Shown: positions 12,584-30,892, counted from the stretch's first letter. The stretch: DNA of 64,000 nt from an uncultured bacterium (GCA_964573295.1 CAZNJE010000013.1:14099-78098), one strand, 5' to 3'. Numbers and translations: made by a program. Notes: generated from the letters alone by a model not told the origin.

Positions 12584-12763
12584 GTGATAGCCCATCGCCC
12601 CCCCAAGCCGGCACGTCCGCCGCGCATCGCTCGCCGGCGGCAACTCCCATGGACGGCCCATCCTACGCCTACCCATCGGCGCGGTTCAACGCTCTCCCGT
12701 GGACCGGATCCAGATTCCGAATTCGCTCCAATGGAGCCGTTCAAGATGTGGGCGTGATCGAGT

Positions 12764-14373: not shown

Positions 14374-14564
14374 AACCACGGCCTCACAGGCTCGCTGGCC
14401 GGCGCAAGCCAGATCGTCCACTCCGAGACCGTCCTGACCGCAAGCTCCTGAACCACGCTTCTTTGCCAGCACGCCTCTGGCCCTGAGCCCCTGCCTACGC
14501 TAGACTTCCGGGCATGCTTCGGCTCGGGGTCGAAGCGACGCCTTGGCGGAAGGAGAGCATTCCC

Positions 14565-16427
14565 ATGGAACATCCTCGTCTGGTGATGCCAGCGGCCGGC
14601 TTGGGCCTGCTGGCGGGCACCGCAGCGTGGGCGGGCATGGCCCTGCTGGTCGGCATGATCGTGCTGGCAGGCCTGACCGCACTGGCCGGCATGGCCGTAC
14701 CGGCCGGCGCCCAGACCATCGACGCCCAGGAGTACTGGCTCGACAATGGCATGCAGGTGCTGATCGTCGAGCGCCACGAGAGCCCAACCTTCATGGCGGC
14801 GATCGCCGCGCGGGTGGGGTCGGTCAACGAGATGACCGGCATCACCGGCATTTCCCATCTTTTCGAGCACATGATGTTCAAGGGCACGAAGACGATCGGA
14901 ACGAAGGACATCGAGCGGGACCTGGCCATCATGGCCCAGCTCGATTCGCTCCGTGCCCTAATGCGCGAGGAAGAGCGCGTGATGCGCGAGGCCTTGCGTC
15001 GCGGCCGGATCGATGACATGCACGATCCCAAAGCCAAGACGCCCCGCTACCGGGAGCTGGAGGCCGGCTTCGACCGGCTGATCGAGGAGCAGCGCGAGCT
15101 GATCGTGAAGGACCAGCTCGACGAAATCTACAGCAAGCACGGCGGCACGTTCTTGAACGCTATGACATCGAACGACATGACGATGTACTTCGTGCGGCTG
15201 CCCAGAAACAAGCTCGAGCTCTTCATGTGGATGGAATCCGACCGGTTCTTGAACCCCGTCTTCCGCGAGTTCTACTCCGAGCGCAATGTGGTGCGCGAGG
15301 AACGGCGCCTGACCCTGGAATCGACCCCCACCGGCCTCATCGACGAGGACTTCGCCTCGATGTTCTGGAAGTCTTCTTCCTACCGGTGGGAGGTGATCGG
15401 CTGGCCTTCGGATCTCTACAGCATCACCCGCGAGCAGGCCGAGGACTATTTCGATACCTACTACTCTCCCAACAACCTTACGATGATCCTGGTCGGCGAC
15501 CTCGATCCCGACGAGACGATGAAGCTGGTGCGCACCTATTTCGAGCGCTTGCCGCGCGGCACGAACGAGCCGCCCGATGTGGTCACGCTGGAGGAACGCC
15601 AGTACGGCGCCAAGCGCCTGGTCGCCGAGGCCGAGACCAGCCCGCAGGTCGAGATCTGGTACCACACCGTGGCCTGGAAGCACCCCGACAGCTACCCGCT
15701 CGACGTGCTGGCCGGCCTCATGAGCGGCAAGACCGGGCGGCTGTACAAGAAGCTGGTCGAGGAGCATGGCATCGCCAAAGCCTCGGTCTCCGGAGGCGGC
15801 CGCATGATGCCCGGCGGCGACAACCTGGCCGTCCGGGCCGGCCAGGATTCACGCAAGTATGCCGGCGCGTTCCAGATCAGCGCCGAAGGCGTCTCCGACA
15901 CGCGCTCCGAGATCCTTGAAGAGGCCGTCTACGAGGTCATCGAAGACCTCAAGACCCGCCCCGTGCCCGAGCAGGAGCTGCAGAAGGTGAAGAACCAGAT
16001 GCAGGTGCGCGACATCCGATTCATGGACATCATGTCGGGGCTTGGGATCATGTTCCGTCTGGCCCCCAACGCGGCGATGGGAGACTGGACCGAGGCGAAC
16101 CGCGGGCCCGAGAAGCGCGCGCAGGTAACGGCCGAGGACGTTCGCAGGGTCGCCAACACCTACTTCGCCGACGATCAGCGCAACATCCTCAACATCAACC
16201 CCAAGGCCGGCACCGAAGTGGCCTCGGAGGATGACGGCGATGCGCGCAAAGCGCAGATCGTAGAGCGCATCAAGGCGATCAAGGATCCCGCCCAGCTCGA
16301 ACAGATGATCGGCATGGTCCAGATGGGACTCGGCCAGGTCGAAGACCCCGAGCGCAAGGCCCAGATGGAAGAGATGCTCCAGATCGCCAGCGAACACCTG
16401 GAATCGCTGAAGTCGCAAGAGAAGTAG
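14565..16427 (+). CDS. M16 family zinc peptidase, catalytic subunit
   Basis: Inverted motif HLFEH, NAMTSND, ERNVVREERR; signal peptide; SD AAGGAGAG. Confidence 0.9.
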   Translation: MEHPRLVMPAAGLGLLAGTAAWAGMALLVGMIVLAGLTALAGMAVPAGAQTIDAQEYWLDNGMQVLIVERHESPTFMAAIAARVGSVNEMTGITGISHLFEHMMFKGTKTIGTKDIERDLAIMAQLDSLRALMREEERVMREALRRGRIDDMHDPKAKTPRYRELEAGFDRLIEEQRELIVKDQLDEIYSKHGGTFLNAMTSNDMTMYFVRLPRNKLELFMWMESDRFLNPVFREFYSERNVVREERRLTLESTPTGLIDEDFASMFWKSSSYRWEVIGWPSDLYSITREQAEDYFDTYYSPNNLTMILVGDLDPDETMKLVRTYFERLPRGTNEPPDVVTLEERQYGAKRLVAEAETSPQVEIWYHTVAWKHPDSYPLDVLAGLMSGKTGRLYKKLVEEHGIAKASVSGGGRMMPGGDNLAVRAGQDSRKYAGAFQISAEGVSDTRSEILEEAVYEVIEDLKTRPVPEQELQKVKNQMQVRDIRFMDIMSGLGIMFRLAPNAAMGDWTEANRGPEKRAQVTAEDVRRVANTYFADDQRNILNINPKAGTEVASEDDGDARKAQIVERIKAIKDPAQLEQMIGMVQMGLGQVEDPERKAQMEEMLQIASEHLESLKSQEK

Positions 16428-16463
16428 TCCCTGACGAGGGATCCTATAGAGGGAGTAAGAATC

Positions 16464-18110
16464 ATGGTGTCCACCCATCTGCCCACCTGTGCGAGCACCT
16501 ACGCGTCCGGCGGCGCGACCGCCTATGCATCCACCCGTACGTCCACCCACGGAACGCGCGGGGTCTCGGCCCGCGCGTCCCTTCGAGCCGCTGTCTCCGC
16601 GCACGCGTTTCTTTGGACCACGCTGATGGCCTGCGCGCTGATCAGCCTCGCGCCGGCCTTCGCCCCAGCCTTCGGGCTGGGCTCCGCGCCGGCGCACGCC
16701 GGCGAGATCGCCGACCATCCCGACCAGCTCACCTTCCCCGAGTTGACCTTCACCCCGCCTGAGCCGGCCGATTACCGCCACGAGCTCGACTGTGGCGTCA
16801 CCGCCTACATCGCCGAGAACCATACGGTCCCGACCTTTGAACTCACGATCCTGGCGCGCACCGGATCGATGTACGAGCCGGTGGAGAAGGCCGGCCTGGC
16901 CACGATGACGGGCCACCTCATGCGAAACGGCGGCGCCGGCGAATTGACGGCCAGCGAGTTGGACGAACGGCTCGCCTACCTGGCGGGCACGATCGATGTC
17001 CGGATGCTGGACGACCAGGCCCGCGTCTCGCTGTTCTGTCTATCCAAGGATGTGGACGAGGGGTTGGATTTGCTGCGCAAGGTGCTGCGCGAGCCGCTCT
17101 TCGATCAAGCCATGCTGGAACGTCACCGGACCGACATGCTTGCCGAGCTCGAGCAAGGCAATGCCTCGACGGCGGCCATCGAAGATCGCGAGTGGGCCTT
17201 CTTGCTCTACGGCCACCATCCGTGCACGAACCGCTACCGCCGAACCGCCGCCTCGCTGGAATCGATCACGCGCGAGGATGTCAAGAGCTTCCACGCCCGT
17301 TTCTTCTTCCCTGCCAACTTCGTCGTGGCCGTCTCGGGCGACTTCGAGATTCGCGCTGCCATCGAAAGGCTGGAGAATCTCTTTGCGGACTGGCCGTCGC
17401 CGCGAATCATGATCCCGCCGGTCACCGATCAGGTCGCCGAGCCGGCACCCGGCGTCTACATGATTCCGAAGGCCGACGTGAATCAGTCCCGCGTCCGGAT
17501 CGGGCATCTGGGCGTGACGCGTGACATTCCCGAGCAGTATGCGCTCATGTTGATGAACGAAATCTTGGGCGGCGGCGGCTTCAGCTCGCGCATCACCCGT
17601 CGGGTGCGCTCCGACGAGGGTCTGGCCTACAGCACGGGAAGCCGCTTCGACCGCCCGGTAGATTATCCGGGCACGTTTCGCGCATGGTTGCAGACGAAAC
17701 ATGCCACCGCCGCGTTCGGCTCGCGTCTGATCGTCGACGAGATCGAGCGGATCCGCGACGAGCGCTGCTCCGAAGACGCTCTCGAGCTCGCGAAGGCCAG
17801 CTTCATCGGCAACCTGGTCAACCCGTTCAGCAGCAAGAGCAGCATCGTGGAGACCTTCGCCCAGGACGACTTCACCGGCCGGCCCGACGATTACTGGCAG
17901 GACTACCAAGAAAAGATCCAGTCGGTCACGCCCGAGCAGGCGCAGGAGGCCGCCCGGAAGTTCCTGCATCCCGATGAGCTGATCTTCTTGGTGGTGGGAG
18001 ACCCCGAGGCCGTCCAGGCAGGGTCGGAGAAGCACCCCGACCGTTTCTCCGACTTCGGGAAGGTCACGGTCATGCCCCTCCGAAACCCGATGACGTTGGC
18101 CTTCGAGTAG
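16464..18110 (+). CDS. M16 family peptidase, non-catalytic partner subunit
   Basis: No HxxEH; ILGGGGFSSRITRRVRSDEGLAYS motif; secretion signal. Confidence 0.85.
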   Translation: MVSTHLPTCASTYASGGATAYASTRTSTHGTRGVSARASLRAAVSAHAFLWTTLMACALISLAPAFAPAFGLGSAPAHAGEIADHPDQLTFPELTFTPPEPADYRHELDCGVTAYIAENHTVPTFELTILARTGSMYEPVEKAGLATMTGHLMRNGGAGELTASELDERLAYLAGTIDVRMLDDQARVSLFCLSKDVDEGLDLLRKVLREPLFDQAMLERHRTDMLAELEQGNASTAAIEDREWAFLLYGHHPCTNRYRRTAASLESITREDVKSFHARFFFPANFVVAVSGDFEIRAAIERLENLFADWPSPRIMIPPVTDQVAEPAPGVYMIPKADVNQSRVRIGHLGVTRDIPEQYALMLMNEILGGGGFSSRITRRVRSDEGLAYSTGSRFDRPVDYPGTFRAWLQTKHATAAFGSRLIVDEIERIRDERCSEDALELAKASFIGNLVNPFSSKSSIVETFAQDDFTGRPDDYWQDYQEKIQSVTPEQAQEAARKFLHPDELIFLVVGDPEAVQAGSEKHPDRFSDFGKVTVMPLRNPMTLAFE

Positions 18111-18364
18111 GCGGCCCCTGGAGGTGAAGTGGACCCGGCAACTCCACCCCAAGGATCTCGAGCAGATCCAGAGGCACCCCAATGCCGTCATCGCGAGCCG
18201 GGCGCGAAGCACAAGCGACCTCTTGGGGATCCCGGTTGTGCCCGTGCCCGTCGTCGCTTTGCGGATTGACCATCTTCCCCAGTGACAGACGCCGAATGGC
18301 TTGTGCCGAACGGTCGGTGCCGAATGGTTCACCGGGAGCCGCCGCATCGTAGCGACGACCGAAT

Positions 18365-19810
18365 CTAGGGCCCGCTGTCCGGCTCACGCCCGGATGAATA
18401 CCACACGCGGTACCCGGTGGGGTCCACGGTCAGCTCACCTTGCAGCGAGCCCTCCGCCACGGGGTGGAACTGCCCCTCGCGCCATTCGTACCACGCCCGG
18501 GCCGCCAGGCCCGGGGGCAACCGAAACGTAGGGCGCAGATCCGAGAGGTTCACCGCGCAGAGCATCAGCTCGCCTTCCAGCGAACGGGCATAGACCAGAA
18601 TGTCCGGATGCTCTGCGGGAATCCGTTCCAGCGAACCCCGCCGCAGGACGGCGCTGCTCCCGCGTAGCCTCGTGACATCCCTGTACAGATCGAGGTAGTC
18701 CGGATTCCCTTCGGCCCACGCCACCGACCACGGTTCACTCGGCGTCGCCGGGGTGCGGTCGGCGATCTCCTGTCCCATCAGAAGCTGAGGCGTTCCGGGT
18801 ACGGTCATCAGGAAGGCGGCATAGCCACGCACATACGGCCAGCGATAGAGCGTGCTCGAGCGCGGGCTGAAGTGATCTTCCAGGTAGATCACGGTCGTCT
18901 GGTTGGGGCCCGGAAGATCGGCGGTGGCACTCAGCGCAAGCCAGAGTTCCTCGGTCAGGCCGGGTTCGGCCATGTCCTCCATCCGGCACTCGTCGAGCCG
19001 CTCCTTGAGCCCAGACGCATAAATGGCGTGAAACCCGAGCTCGAGCGATCGCGGGTCGGCCGACTCGGCCATGAAGACGAGGCTTGGGTAGGTTTCGTGA
19101 AGATTCAAGATGAGCGCTTGCCAGAAGTCGTCCGGGGCGAGGGTGGCCAGCGCGCACCGAAAGCCATCGACGCCGGCCTCGCGTACCCAATGCTTGAGTG
19201 TGCCTTCGAGATACTCGCGCGCCGCGGCGTTGTCGAAGTCGAAATCCGCAATGCCCGTCCAGCGGGCCATCTTGCGCGTCAGGACGCCGGTGGCATCGCG
19301 GCGGAACCAGTCCGCATGCTCGTCGATCCGCACATGATTCACGGCCGCCACCGGCAAGACCACATCCAGCAGCACGCGCAACCCGCGCTCGTGTGCCGCC
19401 GTGACGAAACTCCGTAGCGCGTCCAGGTCCCCGAACTCGTCGGCTACGGCTGCGTGATCCCGAACGGCATAGAGATTCCCCAGTTCCCCGTCCCGCTCGG
19501 GCTCGCCGGTCGGGAAGATCGGGGCCAGCACGAGGTTGGCCACGCCCAGGTCCGAGACGCGATCTAGCGCTTGAGTGGCCCCATCCAGATCACCGCTCGA
19601 TGAGAATGCCCGCAAATGCAGCTCGTAGAGCGTGTGGCCCATGAACCAGTCCAGCCTCCCAGGATCCTGGTTGTGGGCCTCGACCGCACCTTCGGTCTTA
19701 CGATCCCCGCCGCATCCGGCGGTGAGAAGAAGGGCGGCGCCGAACAGGAGGGCGGCCCACACAGGCGGGCGGCGCAAGGCGTCCAGCGGGCAGGTTTCGT
19801 GCTCAATCAT
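18365..19810 (-). CDS. GH13 alpha-amylase-fold lipoprotein, predicted catalytically inactive
   Basis: Lipobox LLLTAGC; YELHLRAFS, GNLYAVRDH, FGDLDALRSFVTAAHERGLRVLLD, GVDGFRC, PQLLMGQE. The conserved Asp positions read RCAL and EDHF. Confidence 0.85.
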   Translation of the reverse strand: MIEHETCPLDALRRPPVWAALLFGAALLLTAGCGGDRKTEGAVEAHNQDPGRLDWFMGHTLYELHLRAFSSSGDLDGATQALDRVSDLGVANLVLAPIFPTGEPERDGELGNLYAVRDHAAVADEFGDLDALRSFVTAAHERGLRVLLDVVLPVAAVNHVRIDEHADWFRRDATGVLTRKMARWTGIADFDFDNAAAREYLEGTLKHWVREAGVDGFRCALATLAPDDFWQALILNLHETYPSLVFMAESADPRSLELGFHAIYASGLKERLDECRMEDMAEPGLTEELWLALSATADLPGPNQTTVIYLEDHFSPRSSTLYRWPYVRGYAAFLMTVPGTPQLLMGQEIADRTPATPSEPWSVAWAEGNPDYLDLYRDVTRLRGSSAVLRRGSLERIPAEHPDILVYARSLEGELMLCAVNLSDLRPTFRLPPGLAARAWYEWREGQFHPVAEGSLQGELTVDPTGYRVWYSSGREPDSGP

Positions 19811-20768
19811 CCTCGTCCTTCTCCTGGTTTCTAGACGCGGGCTTGGGAGGAGAGATCCGCCGCCGGGGCGGGGAGTCTCCGGCCTTCTCTTGGCTGTCAC
19901 GCAGGTAGTAGATCGACCGTGTCGGATCGGGGTCCAGACGCACGGTGCTGCGCTCGAAGACCTCGCTGAGCGCGTTCAACCACTGTAGATGCCGCGTGAT
20001 CTCGGGCGATCGTCGGTACTCGGCCGCCAAACGCGCGAAGGCGACCGAGTCGCTGCTCGCCCGTTCCCGGGCCTCGGTGGCGTGGGCCTCGGCGGCCGCG
20101 ACGCTTGCACGCGCCTCGCCACGCGCGCGCGGGACGACCGCGCCGGCGTACCCGCGGGCGTCCTGGACGATTTCCTGCTTCTGCGAGCGAGCGCTCGCCA
20201 CACGCTGGAAGGCCTCACTCACCGTCTCCGGCGGAGAGACATTCGCCAGTTCCACCGAGATGATGCGCACCCCCAGGTCGAGCCGGTCGGCCACCCGCTG
20301 GACCGAGTCACGCACCGTCTGCCTCAGGAGCGACTGCCCGCCGGTCATGGCGATATCTACGCTGACCGCGGCAAGTTCCCGGCACAGGCTTTCCTGCCCG
20401 ATGGCCCGCAACACACGATCGAGCTCCCGCACACCGAATCTCGAACGATCGAGGTCGTAGATATCGTAGCTGGCGATGGCGCTGACCATGACCAGGTTGG
20501 CATCCCCGGTAAGGAGTTCGCGCCCCTCTACGCCTACCTGCAGCTCCAGACCATGGACCTCACTCACTCGCGCCCGCGTGACCCGGTCGATGGGGTAGGG
20601 CAAATGGACATGCACCCCCGGTTCCGCCTGCCGTGCGATGACCCGGCCCCAGCGCAGGACCAGGGCCTCCTCACCGCTGGAGAGGGAGTAGACACCGCTG
20701 GCGAACCACGCGGTCAATGCGGCCCCTACGAGCAGCCCCACGAGCAGCCGGGTGTGATTACGGCGCAT
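19803..20768 (-). CDS. hflK: HflK-like SPFH protein
   Basis: TM helix then GEEALVLRWG, PGVHVHLPYPID, LLTGDANLV, PPETVSEAFQRV, ARGEA coiled-coil; stop overlaps the next ATG (ATGATTGA). Confidence 0.85.
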   Translation of the reverse strand: MRRNHTRLLVGLLVGAALTAWFASGVYSLSSGEEALVLRWGRVIARQAEPGVHVHLPYPIDRVTRARVSEVHGLELQVGVEGRELLTGDANLVMVSAIASYDIYDLDRSRFGVRELDRVLRAIGQESLCRELAAVSVDIAMTGGQSLLRQTVRDSVQRVADRLDLGVRIISVELANVSPPETVSEAFQRVASARSQKQEIVQDARGYAGAVVPRARGEARASVAAAEAHATEARERASSDSVAFARLAAEYRRSPEITRHLQWLNALSEVFERSTVRLDPDPTRSIYYLRDSQEKAGDSPPRRRISPPKPASRNQEKDEDD

Positions 20769-21804
20769 GTTGCCGCCCTCCCTTCGCGGCTGGTCCGAAA
20801 CCCTCCGCCGACCCGCGTCCCTCCGCCGACCCGCGTCCCTCCGCCGACCCGCGTCCCTTCGCCGACCCGCGTCCCTTCGCCGACTCGTATCCCTCCACTG
20901 CCCGGGATCCGGACTCCGCGGGCACGTCGCTCTCAGCACCCGGCTGCAGGGCTTCCAGGAGCGGGGAGTTCTCGTCCAGCACGATGGTGGTTTCTTCGTC
21001 GAAGATCTTCTTGTAGGCCTCCAGAGAGCGTACGAAACGATAGAAGGACAGGTCTCCCCGATAGGTGTCGCCGTAGATGCGCATGGCCTCAGCTTCCGCG
21101 GTGCCACGGATGACACCGGCCTCGTGCTCGGCCTCGGCCAAGATGGTCCGGCTGGCCAGATCGGCCTCGGCGCGAATGCGCAGCGCCTCCTCTTCCCCTT
21201 CCGCGGCGTACCTGCGCGCGATGCGGTTTCGTTCGGCGCGCATGCGCTTGTAGAGCGCGGCCTTGTTCTGTTCGGGCAACATGATCTGCTTGACGAACAC
21301 ACGCTCGATGTGAATCCCCATGCCCTCGCTGGCATCCCGCAGGGCCGCGGTCAAATCTTCGACCAGCCGGTCGAATGCGAGCTGCCCGGCATCGATATTG
21401 ACCAGCGCATCGAGATCGCATTGACCCAGCAGCATGCCCGTGAAAGAGGTCATCAGATCGGTCAACCGCAGTTCCAGGCCCTTCACGTCGCGCACCGTCT
21501 TGATGAAAACGATCGGATCGATGATGCGGTAACAGATCGCCTCCGCCAGAACGACGTTCTTCTTGTCCGCCGTCAAGAATTCCGAAGGCCGCGGTTCGAT
21601 CACCGCGAGACGCGCGTCCAGACGGCGTGGCTGATCGATCGGCGCGGGCAGCTTCCAGTAGAGACCCGGCTGGGTGATAACGCGCACCGGCTTGCCAAAG
21701 CGCTGCACGACAGTGATCTCCCCTTGCTGGGAGACGACCGTGCAGAGGAGCAGTGTCACGCCGGCCAGGACGACCAATGGAATCAGGGATAGACGTTTAT
21801 TCAT
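20758..21804 (-). CDS. hflC: HflC-like SPFH protein
   Basis: VVQRFGKP, PGLYWKLP, FLTADKKNVV, RMRAERNRIARRYAAEG, FYRFVRSLEAYKK. Confidence 0.9.
   Translation of the reverse strand: MNKRLSLIPLVVLAGVTLLLCTVVSQQGEITVVQRFGKPVRVITQPGLYWKLPAPIDQPRRLDARLAVIEPRPSEFLTADKKNVVLAEAICYRIIDPIVFIKTVRDVKGLELRLTDLMTSFTGMLLGQCDLDALVNIDAGQLAFDRLVEDLTAALRDASEGMGIHIERVFVKQIMLPEQNKAALYKRMRAERNRIARRYAAEGEEEALRIRAEADLASRTILAEAEHEAGVIRGTAEAEAMRIYGDTYRGDLSFYRFVRSLEAYKKIFDEETTIVLDENSPLLEALQPGAESDVPAESGSRAVEGYESAKGRGSAKGRGSAEGRGSAEGRGSAEGFGPAAKGGRQHAP
20801..20890. repeat. 18-bp tandem repeat x5 (CCCTCCGCCGACCCGCGT) in the HflC C-terminal tail
   Basis: Seen directly; encodes (K/E)GRGSA repeats. Confidence 0.95.
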
Positions 21805-23611
21805 AGTCGAGGTTTTCCTCTAGGGACGAAAGAACGATGCGCCGCTGGGTGGCAGCCGGCAAAATGGTGATCCGCTTTCCGGCGAGCACTTCCTCGATCG
21901 CGTCCCAGTGCAGGCGAATACGATGAACATTCTCGTCGATTCCGAAGGCGTGCTGTTGCAAGCGAAACCGGTCGGCTCCGCCCAGGGCAGCCACAACCCG
22001 GGTGATCGAATCGGCCTCGGCCGCCTTGACCAGAGCAACGGCTTGGCCACGGCTGCGGGGCACCAGTTCGTTGCTGTATTCGTGCGCCCGATGGATGACC
22101 TCGCTCTTTGTCTCCTTGGCGCTCACCACGGCCCGGTACTGTGGTACGACCGGAAGGGGCGGATGGGCTTCGAGCGAGTAGACCTGGTGGATGGCCACGC
22201 CGATGTCCAGTTCGGCCGCCCGCCGTCTCAAGCGAGGCAGCAGAGTGTCCTGAAGCCGCTGGCGATCGGACGTCAGCAAGCCGTCGAGGGGGATGTGCCG
22301 CTGCACGGCATGGACTTCATGGGCGAAGGCGGCCCGGAGGATCTCGACGGGATCCCGGGCTTGGAGCCCAAAGCGCACGGGATCGATGATCCGATAGTAG
22401 CACACCACGCGACTGTCGACGAGATTCTCATCGCCGGTCAGCGTCAGTGCCTCCTCGGGACGTGTGCGGAAGCGCCCCTGTGTATGCATCGCTTCCCATA
22501 GATTGGCGGAAAGCGAGTCATCCTCGGCATTGAGGTCGGTGCGGAATCCGAGCTCCAGGCGAGAGAGAAGACCGGTACCGATGATCTCGACCGTCCCGAA
22601 GGGCGGCGGCGCGTGAAGGTGCAGGCCGGGGCCGTGCACCGCCACCGCGCGTCCCAGGCCGATCTCGACACCTTCCTCCCAGGGCTGGACGCTGTAGAAC
22701 CCAAGCCCCCCGTAGAGCCCCAGGATCAACACGACCAGTGCGACCAGAACGAGCGGCGCATGACGTCTGATCCACGCGTCCTGGAGAAAGAACGGGGGAC
22801 GGATGCGTGCGATCCGTTCGTTCAAGCGTCGCCCACTCGCCCGCAGGCTTCGTCCGAGCTCGACCGGCCACCGGGGCAAGACGATCGCTCGCACGACGCG
22901 CTGCAGGCGCAGGGGCAGCCGTTCGAAGCCCCGGGCCAGGCTCTGCTGCATCGCCCGCCCCGTCTTCGCCAGCGAGGCGGGCCAGCGGACGCGCAGTTGG
23001 CCAACCGTGCGGATCAAGAGACGGACGGTCATATTGAGGATCGCCAGTCCGATCAAGGCCGTCATCGCGCGTTCGATGTCCAGGCCGAAATAGCCGACCA
23101 GCAACGTGACCCACACCCCGAACGAGGTCAGAAAGTCGGAATGGGTATGCGCCCCTTCGGCTTCGAAGAGCGGAGAATCGTACCGCCGTCCGATGCGCTT
23201 CTTGTAGCCGGCCATGACGAAGGTCACGACCAGCGCGCAGGAGATGCCGACAAACGCGATCACCTGATTCGGGTCGCGGGCCTGGATGAAGCGGTCGGGC
23301 GGATTCTGGACGACGTAGGTCAGAAGTTCCACGGCGCCCACGCCCATGACCCCGGCCACGCCCAGGCATAGGAGCGATTCGGCGAACCGCCCCCAGCTCT
23401 TCGATAGATAACGGTGGTTGACCAGGATCGACAGCAGCACGGTCGCGGTCACACCCAGGTCGCCCACCGAGTGGAACGTATCGGCCAGCAATACCGTGCT
23501 ACCGGTCAGACGAGAGAGACCATACAGAAGTACGATCAGCCCGGTGTCGGCGCCGATCGCGAGGAGCGAGGCGCGCACGAGGGCCTTGAAGCGAATGGAC
23601 TCCGTGGACAT
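21797..23611 (-). CDS. Fusion of a CDF cation-efflux transmembrane domain and an HflK/SPFH domain
   Basis: N-terminal LLADTFHSVGD and EGAHTHSD (CDF TM2/TM5); C-terminal FYSVQPWEEGV, LTGDENLVD, AHPPLPVVPQYRAVVSAK and VPRSRGQA (HflK); one uninterrupted ORF. Confidence 0.85.
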   Translation of the reverse strand: MSTESIRFKALVRASLLAIGADTGLIVLLYGLSRLTGSTVLLADTFHSVGDLGVTATVLLSILVNHRYLSKSWGRFAESLLCLGVAGVMGVGAVELLTYVVQNPPDRFIQARDPNQVIAFVGISCALVVTFVMAGYKKRIGRRYDSPLFEAEGAHTHSDFLTSFGVWVTLLVGYFGLDIERAMTALIGLAILNMTVRLLIRTVGQLRVRWPASLAKTGRAMQQSLARGFERLPLRLQRVVRAIVLPRWPVELGRSLRASGRRLNERIARIRPPFFLQDAWIRRHAPLVLVALVVLILGLYGGLGFYSVQPWEEGVEIGLGRAVAVHGPGLHLHAPPPFGTVEIIGTGLLSRLELGFRTDLNAEDDSLSANLWEAMHTQGRFRTRPEEALTLTGDENLVDSRVVCYYRIIDPVRFGLQARDPVEILRAAFAHEVHAVQRHIPLDGLLTSDRQRLQDTLLPRLRRRAAELDIGVAIHQVYSLEAHPPLPVVPQYRAVVSAKETKSEVIHRAHEYSNELVPRSRGQAVALVKAAEADSITRVVAALGGADRFRLQQHAFGIDENVHRIRLHWDAIEEVLAGKRITILPAATQRRIVLSSLEENLDYE

Positions 23612-23805
23612 ACGCTGCGGCCCACCGCGCTCGCATGTTTCGGGCTCGTGTGTACCCTGTTTGGCGGTACCGTGCTCGGGTCTGTCAGTTGCAGGCATCC
23701 GGCCCCCTCGTGGGTCTCAAAACCACGATACGGGGACCCCGCGCATCGGCGCGGAGCCCCCGCAAATCAGATCAATGCGTAGGACGATTCCAGCCTAGAT
23801 CGCGC

Positions 23806-25575
23806 TTACTGGAGCACGGTCAGCCGCTTCGTCTCGATGTAACCGTTGACGTCGAGCTTGTACCAGTAGGTACCGCTGGCGCAACGAAGGCCGTTGGCGT
23901 CCGTGCCGTCCCACATCAGCGAGTGGGCGCCGGCCGACATCGTCTGATCGGTCAATGTCCGAACCGTACGACCCTGCACATCGAGAATCTCCAGCGAGGC
24001 GTGCACCTCGTTGGGCAGATCGAACTTGATGTTGGTGGTCGCCCGCACCGGATTCGGCCAGTTGGCGTACAGCAGCCCGCCGGAGCGAACGTCGTCGTTC
24101 GTGCCCGGTTCGAACGGCTCGTCGTCCAGAATCGGCGTCGGCTCGTCAAACAGGGTGAAGATCGCCAGCGCAAGCTCGGTGTTGTCCAGGTAGTTGCCCA
24201 CCACCGGGTCGAGCTCATCCGCGTAGGAAGCCAGGACGTTCGAGCCATAGCCCTTGTAGAAGAACGGAATGGCCTGGTTCGTATGTCCCGCCGAATTGGT
24301 CGGATTCTGCCAGTCGTCCCCGGGAGCACTGTAGAAGTAGAAGCCGGGAACTACGCCAGGGCCGTTGTCGGCGACCGGAGCGAACCAGGTATCGGGGTTC
24401 TCCGGATCGACGCCATCACCCCACAAGAAGCCGGTCTCGTGGTCACCGGTGACCACGACCAGTGTCTCGTTCCAGTTGCTGTGGGTCTCAACCCAGTCGA
24501 CGACCGCCTGGAAGGCGTTGTTCCAGTCATTCTGCTCTTCGATCTGGCGACCCATCAGGCGGGCGTGACCCGCCCAGTCGATGGCGCCACCCTCGATCAT
24601 CAGGGCGAAGCCGTCGGCATCCTGGCCCAGGACGTTCAGTGCACCGCGCGCCATCGTCTCGAGCGTGGGGACATTCGCGATCATCGGATCGTGGTAAGGG
24701 GGGAGGGTGGTGTTGTAGTTGCCGCCGTAGGGCACGCTGTCGCCGCTGCGGTTGAACTGCAGGGTGTGCGAGACCTGGGTCACACCAAAGACCTTCTCAG
24801 CCTGGAGAGAGCCGTCGGCCAGCGCCTCGAAGTCGGCCTTCTCATCCATGAAGGTCCAATCGGTCATGCCGCTGGACAGATCCGTCCACAGATCGTAGCC
24901 GCCAACATACTTCCAGTCACCCGGCGCCTCCGGGTCGCCGGGATCCCATTGGCCGTCGGCGTCGTAGTTCGGGTGACCGCAACCCATCACGACTTCGGCA
25001 TCACTGGCGGCCAGCTCTTGGGCGATTTCGGCGTAGTTGTTGCGGCTCTCGTTGTGGGCGACGAAGGTGGCAGGGGTCGCATGGCTCAGCTGCACACTGG
25101 TAATGACGCCGGTAGCCTTGCCAAGTTCCTCGGCCCGCTCGAAGATGTGGAAAAGCGGCTCGCGCTGGCCCGGACCGTCACCGATGCTCATGCCGATTGA
25201 TCCCTTGTAGGTCTTGACGCCCGCCGACATGGCCGTACCCGCCGCCGCCGAGTCGGTGGCGTAGTTCTGCATGTACCACCAGTCGTTCCAGGCCATGTCC
25301 GGATCATAGCCGTAGATGCCGACGAAACCACCGCCACCGTACGGGGGGGTCTCGCCACCTTCGAGGTACATGTAGTTCGTCATGCCGCAGTAGTTCCACG
25401 TCGGATCCACCTCGTACTCCATTCGCTCGCCCTGGTAGTAGGCCGTGGCGTCCAAAGTGGACTGGCCCCAACCATCGGAAATCATGATGATCACGTTCTT
25501 GAGCTCGGCCTGGGCGGTTCCCACCGCTAGAACCAGCGCCAGCACGACGAGCAGTCCCTTGATGCTTCCTCGCAT
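23806..25575 (-). CDS. phoA: Secreted alkaline phosphatase with FlgD-like C-terminal domain
   Basis: IMISDGWG, TDSAAAGTA, HATPA, IEGGAIDWAGH, VTGDHETG; tail NWPNPV...WDGTDANG..CASGTYWYKL. Confidence 0.9.
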   Translation of the reverse strand: MRGSIKGLLVVLALVLAVGTAQAELKNVIIMISDGWGQSTLDATAYYQGERMEYEVDPTWNYCGMTNYMYLEGGETPPYGGGGFVGIYGYDPDMAWNDWWYMQNYATDSAAAGTAMSAGVKTYKGSIGMSIGDGPGQREPLFHIFERAEELGKATGVITSVQLSHATPATFVAHNESRNNYAEIAQELAASDAEVVMGCGHPNYDADGQWDPGDPEAPGDWKYVGGYDLWTDLSSGMTDWTFMDEKADFEALADGSLQAEKVFGVTQVSHTLQFNRSGDSVPYGGNYNTTLPPYHDPMIANVPTLETMARGALNVLGQDADGFALMIEGGAIDWAGHARLMGRQIEEQNDWNNAFQAVVDWVETHSNWNETLVVVTGDHETGFLWGDGVDPENPDTWFAPVADNGPGVVPGFYFYSAPGDDWQNPTNSAGHTNQAIPFFYKGYGSNVLASYADELDPVVGNYLDNTELALAIFTLFDEPTPILDDEPFEPGTNDDVRSGGLLYANWPNPVRATTNIKFDLPNEVHASLEILDVQGRTVRTLTDQTMSAGAHSLMWDGTDANGLRCASGTYWYKLDVNGYIETKRLTVLQ

Positions 25576-25882
25576 TGTGTCTCCTCCTTAGAGATACGAC
25601 TCCATGGCTGACTTGGGTGACTTCAAACCCAATCCCAATGTGACAACCGTCGATGACGGGGACGCGAACGACCCTCCGTGGTCCATGTGCATGCGATGAG
25701 ACGTGCTCTCCCTGAGGGAAAGTGGATTCGTCGCCAGCGGGAACCGGACGAACCGTTCACTCCCGACGCCGGGGACTATGCTCCATCGTTGTCAATGTGT
25801 AGTGTGCCGGAAATTAGGAATGCATGAATCGACCGGGAGGGATAGCTCCCGTTGGCGAATGCTGAGGGGCTGGCTGAGGCGC

Positions 25883-28800
25883 CTACTTCGTCTGGACGGC
25901 GGTCCGCCGCCCGCGCCCGAACATTCGGTAGATCGCCGGCAAAACGATCAGCGTCAGGATGTTCGCCGAGACCACCCCGCCGATCACCACGGTCGCCAGG
26001 GGCCGCTGCACCTCCGCGCCGATGCCGGTGTTGAGCGCCATGGGCACGAAACCCAGAGCGGCGACCATCGTTGTCATCAGCACCGGGCGCAGGCGCATCA
26101 GCGCGCCCTGCTCGATCGCTTCATCGGGCGGCTCGCCCGACTCCAGCCGCCGCCGCATGGTGGAGACCAGGACAAGCCCATCGAGCATCGCCACGCCGCA
26201 GACGGCCACAAAGCCGATCCCGGCCGAGACCGTGTAGGGCATGTCACGCAGCCAGAGGGCCAGGATCCCGCCCACCGCCGCAAAGGGGGCGCCGGTAAAG
26301 ATGATGAACGCGTCCCGCACCGAGTTCATGCTGTTGTAGAGCAGGAACAGAATCAGAAGCAGTGCTGCCGGTACGATAAGCCTAAGACTCCTGCGCGCCC
26401 GCTCCATATGCTCGAACTGCCCCGCCATGCGCACGAAGTAGCCCGGCGGCATGTCGACCTCCGCCGCAATTCGATCGCGGGCCTCGGCCACGAAGCTACC
26501 CACGTCACGGCCGTCGACGTTACATTGGACGACGATCCGGCGCTTCTGCCACTCCCGCGTGACCGTCGCGGGGCCTTCCACGTGCTCGATGGTCGCCAGT
26601 TGATCCAGGGGAATGCGCGCGCCGGCGGCGGTGGGTACGAGGATCCTTCGCAGGGCGTCCGGGTGATCCCGGTAGCGTTCGGGCAAGCGCAGCACCAGGT
26701 CGAACCGGCGCTGGTCCTCTCGAATCTCACCCACCCGCACGCCGCCGACCGCTTCGACCAACTCCAGCACATGCTGGGCCGAGACGCCGTGGCGCGCCAC
26801 GGCGTCCTGGTCCACCCGCACCTCGAGTATGGGCTGCCCGGTGATCTGCTCCACGTAGAGGTCGGTGGCGCCCTCGATCGAATCGAGGACATCGGCCACC
26901 TGGTCGGCGGTTTCGCGCAACCGGCCGAGGTCGTCGCCGAAGATCTTGACCCCGATGTCGGTGCGGATGCCGGCAATCATCTCGTTGACGCGCATCTCGA
27001 TCGGCTGCGTGAAGATCATGCGCATCCCGGGCAGACCTGCCAGGTCGGCGCGCATGTGCTCGACCAGCTCATCCTGCGTACTCGCCCGCGTCCACTCATC
27101 TCGCGGGGTCAGGGTGATGAAGATGTCGGTCAGCTCCATCCCCATCGGGTCGGTGGCCACCTCCGCTGTGCCGGTACGCGCCCACACATCGCGAACCTCG
27201 TCGGGAAACTTCTCGAGGATCACCTTCTCGATCTGCGTGCCGTAGCGGATCGACTCCTCCAGCGACACGCCGGCCAACCGGACGGTGTTGATGACGATGC
27301 CTCCCTCCGATAGCCGCGGAATGAATTCCGATCCGATGGTGAGCCCCAACGCCGCGGCGCCGGCCACCACCAACACCGCGCCGGCGATGACCGCACGCCG
27401 CCGCTGCAGCACGAAGTGGATGACCGGCCGGTAAAGGCGCTTCGCCAAGCGCGCGAACCAGCTCTCGCTGAATGTCTGTCCCCGCTTGAGCGCCAGGCTG
27501 GCCAGCACCGGCATGAGAGTGAGCGAGAGAATCATCGAACCCGCCAAGGCGAACAGCAGGGTCAGCGCCATCGGCCGGAAGAGCTTGCCCTCGATCCCTT
27601 CCAGAGCGAGCACGGGTAGGAAGACGACGGCGATGATGAGCTCGCCGTACATCGTGGGCATGCGCACCTCGAGGGCCGCGTCGCGCACCGTCTCTAGAAC
27701 CGAACGACGCTGATCTCCCTCGCAGCGCTCATCTCCCTCGGAAAGCTTTCTGACGCTATTCTCCACCATGACGACCGAGCTGTCGACGAGCAGACCGAAG
27801 TCGATTGCCCCCAGGCTCAGCAGGCTGCCGGCGATGCCGAAGCGAGCCATCCCCTGAGCCGCGAAAAGCATCGACAGCGGGATCGCCGAGGCCACGATCA
27901 AGCCGGCGCGGATGTTGCCGAGGAAGGCGAAGAGCACCGCGATCACCAAAAGGGCGCCAAGCAACAGGTTCTCCTCGACGGTCCTGAGCACTTCGTCGAC
28001 GAGCTCGGTTCGTTCGTAGACCGGCCGGATCTCGACCCCCGCGGGCAGGATCTTGCGGATCTCCTCCATCCGCTGCTGCAGGCGGGTCGTCACCTCGTGG
28101 CTGTTCTCGCCCATCAGCATGAAGCCGAGCCCCAGCACGACCTCACCCTCGCCGTTGGCGGTCACCGCCCCGCGGCGAATCTCGTACCCCTCGCGGACCT
28201 CGCCAATGTCGCGCACGTGGACCGGCACGCCGTCGTGGGCGGTGATCACGATGTTGCCGATCTCCTCGAGGCTGGTCGTGAGGCTCACCCCCTGGACCAG
28301 ATGAAGCTCGCCGGCTTGCTCCAGGTACCCGCCGCCGACATTGAGATTGTTGCGCGCCAGGGCACCGGCGACCTCGTCGAAGGTGAGCTCGTACTTCGTC
28401 AGTCGCACGGGATCGATCATCACGTGGAACTGCTTCTTCTCGCCGCCCCAGGTGTTGACCTCCGCCACCCCGGCGACCGACTGCAATCGCGGCTTGATGA
28501 CCCAATCGTGCAGGGTGGTCAGCTCCCGCAACGTGTGCGTCTCGCTGGAGAGGACGTAGTGGTAGATCTCCCCCAGTCCGGTCGCCACCGGCCCCATCTG
28601 GGGCTGGGCGATGCCCTCGGGCAGCTGGGCCCCTTGCAGACGTTCCATCACGAGCTGGCGGGCGAAGTAGATATCGGTGCCGTCTTCGAAGATCACGGTC
28701 ACCTGCGACAGTCCGAACTTCGAGATCGAGCGGACCTCCTCCAGGCCCGGCAACCCCGAGATCGCCCGTTCGACGGGGAAGCTGATCTGTTGCTCGATCT

Positions 28801-28978
28801 CCAGCGGCGAGAGGGCCGGGGCGGTCGTGTTGATCTGCACCTGGACCGGGGTCGTATCCGGAAAGGCATCCACAGGCAGGCGCAGCACGGTGTGCACCCC
28901 CACCCCGATCAACACCAGGGTGAGAACGATGACCGTCAAGCGGTGATTCAGGGACCAGTTGATGATCGCGCTCAGCAT
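25883..28978 (-). CDS. czcA: CusA/CzcA-family heavy-metal RND permease
   Basis: LPVDAFPDTTPVQV, GAIDFGLLVD, LFRPMA, RLRPVLMT, EVQRPLATVVIGG. Confidence 0.95.
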   Translation of the reverse strand: MLSAIINWSLNHRLTVIVLTLVLIGVGVHTVLRLPVDAFPDTTPVQVQINTTAPALSPLEIEQQISFPVERAISGLPGLEEVRSISKFGLSQVTVIFEDGTDIYFARQLVMERLQGAQLPEGIAQPQMGPVATGLGEIYHYVLSSETHTLRELTTLHDWVIKPRLQSVAGVAEVNTWGGEKKQFHVMIDPVRLTKYELTFDEVAGALARNNLNVGGGYLEQAGELHLVQGVSLTTSLEEIGNIVITAHDGVPVHVRDIGEVREGYEIRRGAVTANGEGEVVLGLGFMLMGENSHEVTTRLQQRMEEIRKILPAGVEIRPVYERTELVDEVLRTVEENLLLGALLVIAVLFAFLGNIRAGLIVASAIPLSMLFAAQGMARFGIAGSLLSLGAIDFGLLVDSSVVMVENSVRKLSEGDERCEGDQRRSVLETVRDAALEVRMPTMYGELIIAVVFLPVLALEGIEGKLFRPMALTLLFALAGSMILSLTLMPVLASLALKRGQTFSESWFARLAKRLYRPVIHFVLQRRRAVIAGAVLVVAGAAALGLTIGSEFIPRLSEGGIVINTVRLAGVSLEESIRYGTQIEKVILEKFPDEVRDVWARTGTAEVATDPMGMELTDIFITLTPRDEWTRASTQDELVEHMRADLAGLPGMRMIFTQPIEMRVNEMIAGIRTDIGVKIFGDDLGRLRETADQVADVLDSIEGATDLYVEQITGQPILEVRVDQDAVARHGVSAQHVLELVEAVGGVRVGEIREDQRRFDLVLRLPERYRDHPDALRRILVPTAAGARIPLDQLATIEHVEGPATVTREWQKRRIVVQCNVDGRDVGSFVAEARDRIAAEVDMPPGYFVRMAGQFEHMERARRSLRLIVPAALLLILFLLYNSMNSVRDAFIIFTGAPFAAVGGILALWLRDMPYTVSAGIGFVAVCGVAMLDGLVLVSTMRRRLESGEPPDEAIEQGALMRLRPVLMTTMVAALGFVPMALNTGIGAEVQRPLATVVIGGVVSANILTLIVLPAIYRMFGRGRRTAVQTK

Positions 28979-29081
28979 GCTCGGCTCCTTCTGTTGACCC
29001 TAGCGGGCGGCCCAAGGCCGTGCGGTACAGGGCCGATCGGTCCGCACGCAGGAACCCATCGGCCGCGCCCCGCCCGGTGTC

Positions 29082-30737
29082 CTACTGGCCCGGATGCACC
29101 TCGCAACAACCGGCACCCAGGTTGCCGCGCAGGATCTCGGTCTTGAGCAGGAAGCTTCCCTGGGTGACGACCTCGTCTCCGGGGGCGATGCCCGCGAGCA
29201 CCTGGTAGGACCCGCCCTGGGCGTCGCGCAGCTGTACCGCGCGGGGCTGGTAGACCGCATCGCTCTGCTTCACGAAGACCACATTGCAGCAGCCCTCCCA
29301 CTGGACGGCCGCCTGGGGAACGACCAGGGCCGGTTCGCGATCCCGCACCAGGACATTCGCCTCCGCGAACATGTGTGCCTTCAGCAGGCCGGTGGAGTTG
29401 TCGAACTCGGCGCGGGCCCGCAGCGTGCGCGTGCGCGGATCCAGCTCCGCGCTCACCCAGCTGATGTAGCCGCCGAAAACCCGCTCGGGCAGACTGGCGA
29501 CGCGCAAGGTCACGGTCTGTCCCTTGGCAATCTCATCGAGGTCGGCCTCGTAGACATCGAGGATCGCCCACATCTGGGTCACATCGGCGACCGCGAAGAG
29601 CGGCTTGGCCGGACCGACGACTTCACCCACGACGGCATGCCGCTCCACGACCACCGCATCGAAGGAGGCGGTGATCAGGTAGCGGGGACTCGTGTCCTGG
29701 GTTCGCGTGATGGCGTCGATCTCGTCGGCGGAGAGCCCGAAGCTCAGGAGCATCTGCTCGGCTTCGGCCAGCTCGATGCGACTCTCGGCCAGTTGGGTCT
29801 CCATCTCGAGCAGCACCTTCTCGCTGGATAGGCCGCTCGCGTGCAGCTCGGCCTCGCGCTCGTGATTCTGCCTCCGGAGCTTGGTGACCGCCCGCGCTTT
29901 GAGGTAGTGCGACTTCGCCACGCCCAGGTCGGGCGAGGTGATGACGGCCAGCACGTCGCCGGCTTCGACCTCATCGCCCAAGTCGGCATGGACCTCCGCC
30001 ACGATCCCCGGCATCTGCGGGGCCAGACGGGCGTAGAGGTTGCGGTTGTAGTCGAGCACGGCATTGCACTCGACCCACCGGCTGACCGGCTGAACCCGCG
30101 CCGTGGCGAACTCGAGTCCCGCCTCTTGGGCAATCGCCGGAGAAGCGAGGCGTACGATCGAGTTCACCTTGGCGCACACGGTGGCCGGCGCCTGGTGCAT
30201 TCGGGAAGGTGTGGCCGCACCCAGATCCCAACCGGACCCGCCAGCCTGTTCGCCGCCCCCGGTCACTGGAGCGGGAGACACGTTGCCGCCCGCCGCGGCC
30301 TGGACGGGAGACCAGGCACCAGCGCCAGCTTCCGCGTGGGCGGCCGAGCCTGCCCCGCCGCCACCCGCGTTCGCCGGGGCCACCTCGGGATTGCAGATGG
30401 CGCACTGCGACTCGGGCCGCTCGTGCGGGGCACACCAATCCCCCACCGCCTTGAACGCGGGGATGAGAGCGGAATTGCACTGGTAGCACAAAGCCTCCGG
30501 CACGCCGTGGCCGGGGCACGGTCCCATCGACTCGATCAGGGACGGATTGCAGAAAGGACACTGGGCCTCGGCGATCTGGTGCTCGGCGCAGAATGCACCC
30601 TCTTGGGCCGACACCGACGCGTCGGATCCCAGCACCTCGGCCTCGCGGCCATCCTGCCGGTCGCAGCCGAGCTGCGCCGCGGCCAGGATCAGCAGCAAGA
30701 TCACGAGAGACCATCCCAGGGATTGGATGCGCTTCAT
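29082..30737 (-). CDS. CzcB-like RND periplasmic adaptor lipoprotein with N-terminal Cys/His motifs
   Basis: Lipobox AQLGC; three CxxH..xE..CxxC motifs; MFP core; C-terminal VVTQGSFLLKTE...GCC. Confidence 0.9.
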   Translation of the reverse strand: MKRIQSLGWSLVILLLILAAAQLGCDRQDGREAEVLGSDASVSAQEGAFCAEHQIAEAQCPFCNPSLIESMGPCPGHGVPEALCYQCNSALIPAFKAVGDWCAPHERPESQCAICNPEVAPANAGGGGAGSAAHAEAGAGAWSPVQAAAGGNVSPAPVTGGGEQAGGSGWDLGAATPSRMHQAPATVCAKVNSIVRLASPAIAQEAGLEFATARVQPVSRWVECNAVLDYNRNLYARLAPQMPGIVAEVHADLGDEVEAGDVLAVITSPDLGVAKSHYLKARAVTKLRRQNHEREAELHASGLSSEKVLLEMETQLAESRIELAEAEQMLLSFGLSADEIDAITRTQDTSPRYLITASFDAVVVERHAVVGEVVGPAKPLFAVADVTQMWAILDVYEADLDEIAKGQTVTLRVASLPERVFGGYISWVSAELDPRTRTLRARAEFDNSTGLLKAHMFAEANVLVRDREPALVVPQAAVQWEGCCNVVFVKQSDAVYQPRAVQLRDAQGGSYQVLAGIAPGDEVVTQGSFLLKTEILRGNLGAGCCEVHPGQ

Positions 30738-30892
30738 GGCTATTCTCCTCCCGATGTGCACGCGAGCGTGCCCGCTGATCGACACGTGCGTGCGCATGAC
30801 GGCGGCCTACTCTGCTCGGATGCCTGCCGGCAAAGAGTCCGCCCGTTGTCTGTTCGGACAAGAAAGGTTGGTGGTGATGGCGAGACCGGGTA

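Follow-up and report, generated by a model that had tools for sequence, protein, structure and literature searches.

In Escherichia coli, the adjacent genes hflK and hflC encode proteins with an N-terminal transmembrane (TM) helix, a periplasmic SPFH domain and a coiled coil, which are seen in complexes with FtsH (PDB 7wi3, 7vhq and 9cz2). HflK/C gates the access of membrane substrates to FtsH (PMC13097134). In another described assembly, the SPFH cage of stomatin encloses the transporters AQP1 and UT-B (PMC12407830; PDB 9zd2 and 9z7u), and in SPFH-NfeD operons such as QmcA-YbbJ (PDB 8z5g) the gene for a bacterial SPFH protein is tightly linked in an operon to that of its dedicated membrane partner. 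Here we describe an operon in a 64-kb stretch of DNA from an uncultured bacterium (CAZNJE010000013.1:14099-78098; the whole stretch of 64,000 nucleotides is called the window below) whose first gene, g1, encodes a predicted metal exporter of the CDF family fused to an HflK domain. It is followed by genes for an HflC protein (g2), a free HflK protein (g3) and a non-catalytic GH13 lipoprotein (g4). We consider it likely that g1-g3 make up a mobile module for an HflK/C-type SPFH assembly with a tethered divalent-metal exporter, and that g4 is not one of its components.

The operon shares with the E. coli system its adjacent hflK- and hflC-type genes and the arrangement of TM helix, SPFH domain and coiled coil. 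However, it has three SPFH genes instead of two, in the order K(fused)-C-K, and one of its HflK proteins carries an N-terminal six-TM exporter as well as a loop insertion specific to the family. Stomatin cages with AQP1 or UT-B offer the best functional analogy, being SPFH oligomers that organize or enclose a specific transport protein. The client of stomatin is bound non-covalently by a homo-oligomeric cage on the cytoplasmic face, whereas the client here is a fused metal exporter and the cage is predicted to be periplasmic and hetero-oligomeric. SPFH-NfeD operons resemble the system in gene organization, but here no NfeD is present and the partner is a transporter that is fused rather than separate. 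CDF transporters such as YiiP/FieF, CzcD and ZnT have the same six-TM Cation_efflux fold and a site-A tetrad in TM2 and TM5, which in g1 is of the H-D/H-D kind found in CzcD and ZnT, but where these transporters have a cytoplasmic ZT_dimer domain, g1 continues through a basic helical linker and a seventh TM helix into an HflK domain.

The fused exporter and its SPFH partners

The four open reading frames, read from the DNA, occupy 18365-23698 of the minus strand. Coordinates here and below are those of the 64-kb window:

21797..23698, minus strand: g1, CDF TM domain, basic helical linker, TM7 and predicted periplasmic HflK-type SPFH/coiled-coil domain
20758..21804, minus strand: g2, SPFH protein of the HflC type, with a single TM helix at its N terminus and repeats in its C-terminal tail
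19803..20768, minus strand: g3, free SPFH protein of the HflK type, with a single TM helix at its N terminus
18365..19810, minus strand: g4, non-catalytic GH13 (AmyB-like) lipoprotein

Each gene starts on the stop of its predecessor, just as a first-pass annotation of this DNA had described. The overlaps span 8 nucleotides at the g1/g2 junction (ATGAATAA, 21804/21797), 11 at g2/g3 (ATGCGCCGTAA, 20768/20758) and 8 at g3/g4 (ATGATTGA, 19810/19803), and it is from such overlaps that stoichiometric co-expression of g1-g4 was proposed. The g1 frame probably begins at the ATG at 23698 (633 amino acids) rather than at 23611, because the upstream codon is preceded by the better Shine-Dalgarno-like sequence (AGGGGG) and the resulting N-terminal extension is matched in the orthologues P0002 and P0003; the difference is immaterial.

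Domains in g1-g4 were called by Pfam and NCBIfam profile searches with the family cut-offs, and these searches uphold the first-pass identification of a CDF-HflK fusion, an HflC and an HflK. In g1, Cation_efflux (PF01545) matches residues 16-204 with an E value of 2.7e-18 and 66.9 bits, against a cut-off of 26.6. Band_7 follows at 307-485, and the hflK model TIGR01933 matches residues 305-585 with 106.3 bits, against a cut-off of 159.4. The CDF model TIGR01297 scores 64.9 bits, under its cut-off of 82.35, and the best NCBIfam CDF matches (MamB, MamM, FieF and MntE) are all far under theirs. No match to ZT_dimer (PF16916) was found in g1 with Pfam, whereas an ordinary CDF encoded in the window does match it. 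This full-length protein (Cation_efflux plus ZT_dimer; 11642-12676, minus strand) is encoded 9 kb away, so that the genome has a conventional CDF besides the fused one, which lacks the C-terminal domain. Hydropathy analysis places TM1-6 of g1 at residues 11-203 and TM7 at 287-305, separated by a basic linker (205-283) with 17 lysines or arginines versus 4 aspartates or glutamates. With this cytoplasmic linker and TM7, the SPFH domain is predicted to face the periplasm, which is the usual topology of HflK.

The presumed transport site is strictly conserved. In an alignment of g1 with 23 homologues (24 sequences, 35-85% identity), D44, H47 and D51 of TM2 and E152, H155 and D159 of TM5 are invariant. 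Residues H47, D51, H155 and D159 align with D45, D49, H153 and D157 of E. coli YiiP, which form transport site A (phmmer against the PDB). Sites of the H-D/H-D type are typical of CDFs for Zn, Co or Cd. An AlphaFold2 model of g1 has a mean predicted local distance difference test score of 67.5, reaching 70-90 over the TM domain and the core of the SPFH domain. In structural comparisons, the N-terminal half of the model was matched to YiiP and ZnT proteins (8f6k, 5vrf and 9jj1; the matches include YiiP, ZnT3, ZnT7 and ZnT8), and the C-terminal half best to the HflK/C chains of FtsH complexes (9cz2, 7vhq and 7wi3). Judged by its intact site and predicted fold, the CDF part of g1 looks like a working transporter.

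The two partner genes provide one subunit of each type, such that C-type (g2) and K-type (g1 and g3) subunits are encoded adjacently. The g2 product exceeds the hflC cut-off (TIGR01932, 160.7 bits against 134.4), has a TM helix at residues 6-24 by hydropathy, and is encoded second, directly behind the gene for the fusion, wherever a related locus has enough DNA (50-85% identity). The g3 product has a TM helix at residues 8-26 and reaches 157.4 bits with TIGR01933 (cut-off 159.4). Both g1 and g3 are HflK-like but fall below this equivalog cut-off, and so are not certified equivalogs. The C-terminal tail of HflC contains a repeat:

20801..20896: 18-nucleotide tandem repeat, 5.3 copies with 93% matches, encoding GRGSA(E/K) repeats in the HflC C-terminal tail

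Tails are shorter in the HflC proteins of more distant loci, where matches to g2 stop near residue 290.

Distribution of the module and its ATPase counterpart

The combination of PF01545 with PF01145 in one protein recurs in 24 protein clusters with 35-85% identity. CDF-HflK fusions are present at 25 loci of metagenome-assembled genomes (MAGs) that represent species in GTDB, and the carriers come from many phyla, with Aminicenantes, Zixibacteria, Desulfobacterales, SAR324, Spirochaetes, Ignavibacteria and Tariuqbacter among them; further fusion loci are found on metagenome contigs. Removal of duplicates left 29 distinct loci besides the window that were long enough to judge. Order and orientation of fusion, HflC and HflK are kept in all 29, with the free HflK as the third gene of every complete module. 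No locus with enough DNA lacks the HflC and HflK partners, save an apparently degraded copy (L049). At that locus (L049:6001-7689), the fusion is matched only in part (residues 7-452), as is HflC, due perhaps to decay of the copy or to an assembly problem. One SAR324 MAG has two CDF-HflK modules on separate contigs (L028 and L033; L033:8115-9992, minus strand), and a stand-alone P1B ATPase is encoded 6 kb downstream of one of the copies.

Neither clustering of all flanking open reading frames nor a Pfam census of 77 neighbors revealed a universal fourth gene, and the flanks vary by locus. The one faint trend is that some modules have metalloregulators or metal transporters nearby, namely members of the DtxR family (three loci), the Fur family (two), NicO/DUF1007 (one) and FeoAB (one), and scattered TetR regulators also appear in the census. 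A scan for the HExGH, Walker A and RPGRFD motifs of FtsH in the window and 33 loci was negative, which agrees with the first-pass remark that ftsH is not adjacent. This result carries no information, since E. coli, too, has its ftsH gene apart from hflKC. As judged from these comparisons, the conserved unit is the three genes g1-g3, apparently a portable module, and not the four genes of the window.

A second type of module came to light through the HflK motif. In a Planctomycetota MAG (L032), a complete P1B heavy-metal ATPase has an HflK domain attached to it through a short linker plus a single TM helix, and genes for HflC and HflK follow. This ATPase scores 523.6 bits with TIGR01525 (cut-off 346.25) and has the CPC motif. 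Three loci with such modules are:

L032:2639-8257: ATPase-HflK module
L034:8001-13780: ATPase-HflK module
L035:8001-13592: ATPase-HflK module

These modules resemble that of the window in gene order and in their topology of exporter, cytoplasmic linker, TM helix and periplasmic HflK domain. They differ in that the exporter is a P1B pump of the CPC type, driven by ATP, and not a CDF, and in being much more abundant, with at least 120 clusters. Among the best 120 clusters (49-60% identity, about 1100-1200 amino acids), all 120 combine PF00122, PF00702 and PF01145 (E1-E2_ATPase, Hydrolase and Band_7). The DKTGT, CPC and GDGxND motifs are intact in 119 of them, and DKTGT, TGE, GDGxND and the CPx of TM4 are present in 115-119. 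Their TM6 reads FHE(F/I/L), which to our knowledge fits no P1B subgroup signature. Carriers include the cultured Symmachiella dynata (QDT47166.1) and S. macrocystis, and both in S. dynata and on a metagenome contig of 659 kb, two Band_7 genes come after that of the fusion. For the Symmachiella fusions, the only annotations are "copper-importing P-type ATPase A" or "P-type Zn(2+) transporter", and the labels of ATPase-HflK fusions in public databases are similarly generic ("Cu+-exporting ATPase" or "P-type Zn(2+) transporter").

The HflC partners of the CDF and ATPase modules form one clade with 100% bootstrap support by neighbor-joining. The fused HflK domains of both types also have in common an insertion in an SPFH loop, W-(E/Q)-x-x-H, which reads LWExxH where the exporter is a CDF and EWQxEH where it is an ATPase, and which is absent from free HflK proteins (including g3), from HflC and from stand-alone HflK proteins. 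This motif is at most suggestive of a single origin for the two kinds of fused HflK. Either way, through shared ancestry and a swap of transporters or through convergence, one K(fused)-C-K design has come to carry metal exporters of two unrelated classes. The occurrence of both classes in one module design is the strongest argument that SPFH assembly and exporter act together.

The GH13 lipoprotein and the alkaline phosphatase locus

The fourth gene of the window encodes an Alpha-amylase domain and a C-terminal Malt_amylase_C domain (Pfam), and its closest solved structure is AmyB of Thermotoga neapolitana (4gkl). Relative to 4gkl, the nucleophile Asp is replaced by Ala (GFRCALATL), NHD of region IV by DHF and NH of region I by PV, so that only the acid/base Glu is kept among the catalytic residues. 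The nucleophile position is occupied by A, A, P and T in four orthologues, in which the surrounding residues are conserved and DHF always replaces NHD. A lipoprotein signal with a lipobox cysteine (LLLTAG|C) is present and there is no uncleaved TM anchor. The first-pass description of a dead GH13 lipoprotein therefore holds, and with these residue losses g4 is truly non-catalytic. In other respects, the GH13 fold and its sequence regions are retained. An exhaustive search with alignment assigns it to a small clade of dead GH13 proteins (P0155-P0159 and P0161; 35-62% identity) that is nested among ordinary, active AmyB-like enzymes.

Conservation of g4 does not follow that of the trio. Of the module loci, 23 extend downstream by 1.5 kb or more, and GH13 is missing after the trio in 20 of these; it is absent from the Planctomycete modules as well. 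It follows the trio only in the clade of the window, represented by L009, L001 and L006, whose g1 proteins are 85, 67 and 55% identical to that of the window. The g3/g4 overlap (ATGAnTnA type) is kept in the window, L009 and L001, and in L006 it is replaced by a 3-nucleotide gap. The trio thus co-occurs in other genomes, but GH13 is not conserved beside it, an outcome that the first-pass annotation had named as a refutation of its proposal. All four genomes of the clade have the same gene upstream of the trio, which encodes an alkaline phosphatase (AlkP; the copies of L001, L006 and L009 are 65-89% identical to that of the window). The features concerned are:

23806..25575, minus strand: AlkP with a FlgD_ig/type IX secretion system (T9SS)-type C-terminal sorting domain (Pfam), upstream of g1
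23729..23764, minus strand: terminator-like hairpin with a 16-bp stem, 12 G-C pairs and a T-rich tail, between the AlkP stop and g1
L036:1369-4728: AlkP-GH13 pair of an outgroup locus

The pair also exists on its own. At L036 (GH13 protein P0158) and on a 2.8-kb contig (P0157; JGI 3300042731), dead GH13 lies directly 3' of AlkP with no SPFH gene between them. Both of these AlkP proteins have the FlgD_ig/T9SS-type tail, and that of L036 is 60% identical to the AlkP of the window. Sorting domains of this T9SS type hint at a host from the FCB superphylum. A G+C-rich hairpin comparable to that of the window is likewise found 3' of AlkP in L036. Upstream of AlkP in this locus (L036:1-1198) is a second GH13 gene that retains all catalytic residues (GFRLD, GEAWD and NHD), such that an active and a dead GH13 flank AlkP on either side.

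Most likely, the trio was inserted into an older pair of AlkP and dead GH13 genes, downstream of the AlkP terminator, and g4 thereby came to be translated from the mRNA of the trio. The alternative history is that the trio was deleted in the outgroups. Whichever took place, the existence of GH13 without the module and of the module without GH13 leaves both the GH13 subunit idea and its 4F2hc analogy without support. We therefore view g4 as a probable lineage-specific passenger that is translationally coupled here and lies outside the conserved module, and AlkP with dead GH13 as what appears to be a conserved gene pair in its own right, split by the trio in the clade of the window.

The hairpin between the AlkP stop and g1 makes g1-g4 look like their own transcription unit, with its upstream boundary at the hairpin. 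No sigma-70-like promoters were found in 17900-26000, a result that is uninformative if the promoters of the host are non-proteobacterial. Rfam yielded no match in the window, and none in nine related loci except a partial tRNA, and so gave no sign of a riboswitch or other RNA control; the window has no tRNAs.

The window is rich in efflux genes. An AcrB/CzcA-like RND pump with a CusB/HlyD_D23-type adaptor is encoded at 25883-30797 (minus strand), immediately upstream of the AlkP gene, and an operon of OEP, HlyD_D23 adaptor and RND pump lies at 38666-44510 (plus strand). A pair of genes for M16 (insulinase-type) peptidases at 14514-18110 (plus strand) is convergent with the end of g4.

Proposed organization and its alternatives

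We propose that g1-g3 would be a self-contained, horizontally mobile unit that builds an inner-membrane ring or cage of the HflK/HflC type. HflC would alternate with HflK-type subunits, and some of the HflK positions would be taken by the subunit with the covalently tethered exporter. That the three proteins form an alternating ring, as do HflK and HflC of E. coli, is in our estimate highly probable. The free HflK may serve to dilute the bulky exporter-bearing HflK so that the ring can close, an idea to which we give an even chance; such a role would explain why no module has lost the free HflK. The exporter is very probably active and would export a divalent transition metal, pumping it from the cytoplasm while held in or at the patch of membrane bounded by the ring. 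Because of its HD-HD site, Zn2+ is favored as the single most likely substrate, at odds that are about balanced, and Co, Cd, Fe and Mn remain candidates. The first-pass proposal of an SPFH cage that scaffolds a Zn-type transporter stands as far as the association of SPFH protein and exporter is concerned, given a fusion conserved in 29 other loci and an intact site; its Zn label is plausible from the HD-HD residues rather than established.

The SPFH assembly would regulate, stabilize or compartmentalize efflux, through either a microdomain or FtsH-dependent turnover. Somewhat tentatively, FtsH may join the complex and control turnover of the exporter, which is compatible with a microdomain. 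It is also possible, though rather unlikely, that the assembly confines or regulates the exporter in a microdomain as stomatin does with AQP1 and UT-B, perhaps with discharge into an enclosed periplasmic chamber near the conserved loop. A broader version of this idea is improbable at present. It holds that transporter-tethered HflK/C is an undescribed, widespread organization of metal efflux, in which CDF and P1B-ATPase exporters within an SPFH ring would discharge into an enclosed periplasmic chamber, the role of acceptor or sensor would fall to the W-(E/Q)-x-x-H loop, and the clade of the window might feed Zn2+ to the secreted AlkP.

Several points weigh against the assembly that we favor. 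Both the joining of g1-g3 into one assembly and the position of the exporter inside rather than outside the ring are predictions from sequence. A common origin of the two fused HflK types receives a bootstrap value of only 54% (neighbor-joining). Signs of metal specificity diverge, as the HD-HD site suggests Zn, Co or Cd, the nearby regulators hint at Fe or Mn, and the best NCBIfam CDF matches are all far under their cut-offs. Loss of the CDF C-terminal domain could mean that transport is altered or lost, but the invariant site argues otherwise. The direction of change at the AlkP/trio/GH13 locus, insertion versus deletion, rests on two outgroup loci, and the coupling of g4 to g3 in the clade of the window leaves room for a local functional link.

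The alternative that survives best, which we nonetheless consider unlikely, is ordinary quality control by FtsH with HflK/C. The fusion would deliver the exporter to FtsH for degradation or shield it from FtsH, and thus control its abundance and not the organization of efflux. Consistent with this possibility, g2 exceeds the HflC equivalog cut-off, g3 nearly reaches that of HflK, and the predicted folds match HflK/C chains from FtsH complexes. The gating of FtsH access by HflK/C (PMC13097134) also speaks for it, and this alternative overlaps with the assembly proposed above and does not exclude it. However, a permanently tethered substrate would be an odd means of regulating turnover, and the fused HflK is far below the cut-off (106 versus 159 bits) and has its family-specific loop. 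The absence of ftsH beside all of about 45 loci is weak evidence in the same direction.

A further proposal, specific to the clade of the window, would have the module recruited beside a Zn-dependent secreted AlkP to supply periplasmic Zn2+ for its metallation, with dead GH13 as the AlkP partner. Vertebrate ZnT5, ZnT6 and ZnT7 are known to activate alkaline phosphatase, the HD-HD site is typical of Zn CDFs, and the synteny of AlkP, trio and GH13 in four genomes, together with persistence of the AlkP/GH13 pair where the trio is missing, fits such a unit. Nonetheless, the terminator-like hairpin separates AlkP from g1, and at least 25 other module loci have no AlkP nearby, which makes this proposal distinctly improbable.

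Slightly poorer still are the prospects of a four-protein complex, as put forward in the first-pass annotation, in which dead GH13 would serve the SPFH-transporter cage in the periplasm, as an ancillary subunit or one that binds glycans, after the manner of 4F2hc in SLC3. SLC3 heavy chains (4F2hc and rBAT) do have a GH13 fold without catalytic residues, and g4, like a heavy chain, is encoded beside a transporter. The g3/g4 start-stop overlap of the window recurs in L009 and L001, GH13 is retained after the trio in four of four clade genomes, and the pseudo-enzyme is under purifying selection (48-85% identity) despite the loss of its catalytic residues. But 4F2hc is a type II TM protein that is disulfide-bonded to and obligatorily paired with its transporter, whereas g4 has the signal of a lipoprotein. 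Of 23 module loci, 20 have no GH13 gene, nor do the P1B-ATPase modules, and in L036 and the contig of P0157 the dead GH13 follows directly on AlkP with SPFH genes absent; in L006, moreover, a 3-nucleotide gap replaces the overlap. With neither the obligatory pairing nor the type II anchor, the SLC3 parallel is left unsupported, and with it the role of GH13 as a subunit of the transporter cage.

Least probable of all is that the CDF part is a degenerate anchor or oligomerization handle without transport in a scaffold of three SPFH paralogues, since the missing ZT_dimer domain of all members and the modest CDF scores (TIGR01297, 64.9 versus 82.35 bits) are outweighed by the four site-A ligands, D44 and E152 being invariant in 24 sequences down to 35% identity, by the retention of every P-type ATPase catalytic motif in the Planctomycete fusions, and by six conserved TM helices for which a mere anchor has no need.

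The fusion proteins are already present in public databases under generic names. We found no paper on a CDF-SPFH or P-type ATPase-SPFH fusion or on the three-gene module in a full-text collection that is itself incomplete, and transporter fusions go unmentioned in a survey of SPFH proteins of prokaryotes from 2009. Removal of the bacterial "4F2hc" analogy shifts attention to the pairing of a secreted AlkP with a dead GH13 lipoprotein. In g1, the regulatory cytoplasmic domain of a CDF appears to have been swapped for an SPFH scaffold, which bears on how replaceable the dimerization and regulation of CDF transporters are. The system is tractable, as Symmachiella dynata is in culture and the modest size of the CDF version suits it to heterologous expression and cryo-electron microscopy. 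Recent cryo-electron microscopy has found eukaryotic stomatin cages to enclose specific channels. A natural fusion of HflK to exporters of two classes, encoded with HflC and a free HflK, defines its client genetically. If the broader version given above, of metal efflux organized by transporter-tethered HflK/C, is correct, such natural fusions would reveal that bacterial SPFH cages have a physiological client besides FtsH.

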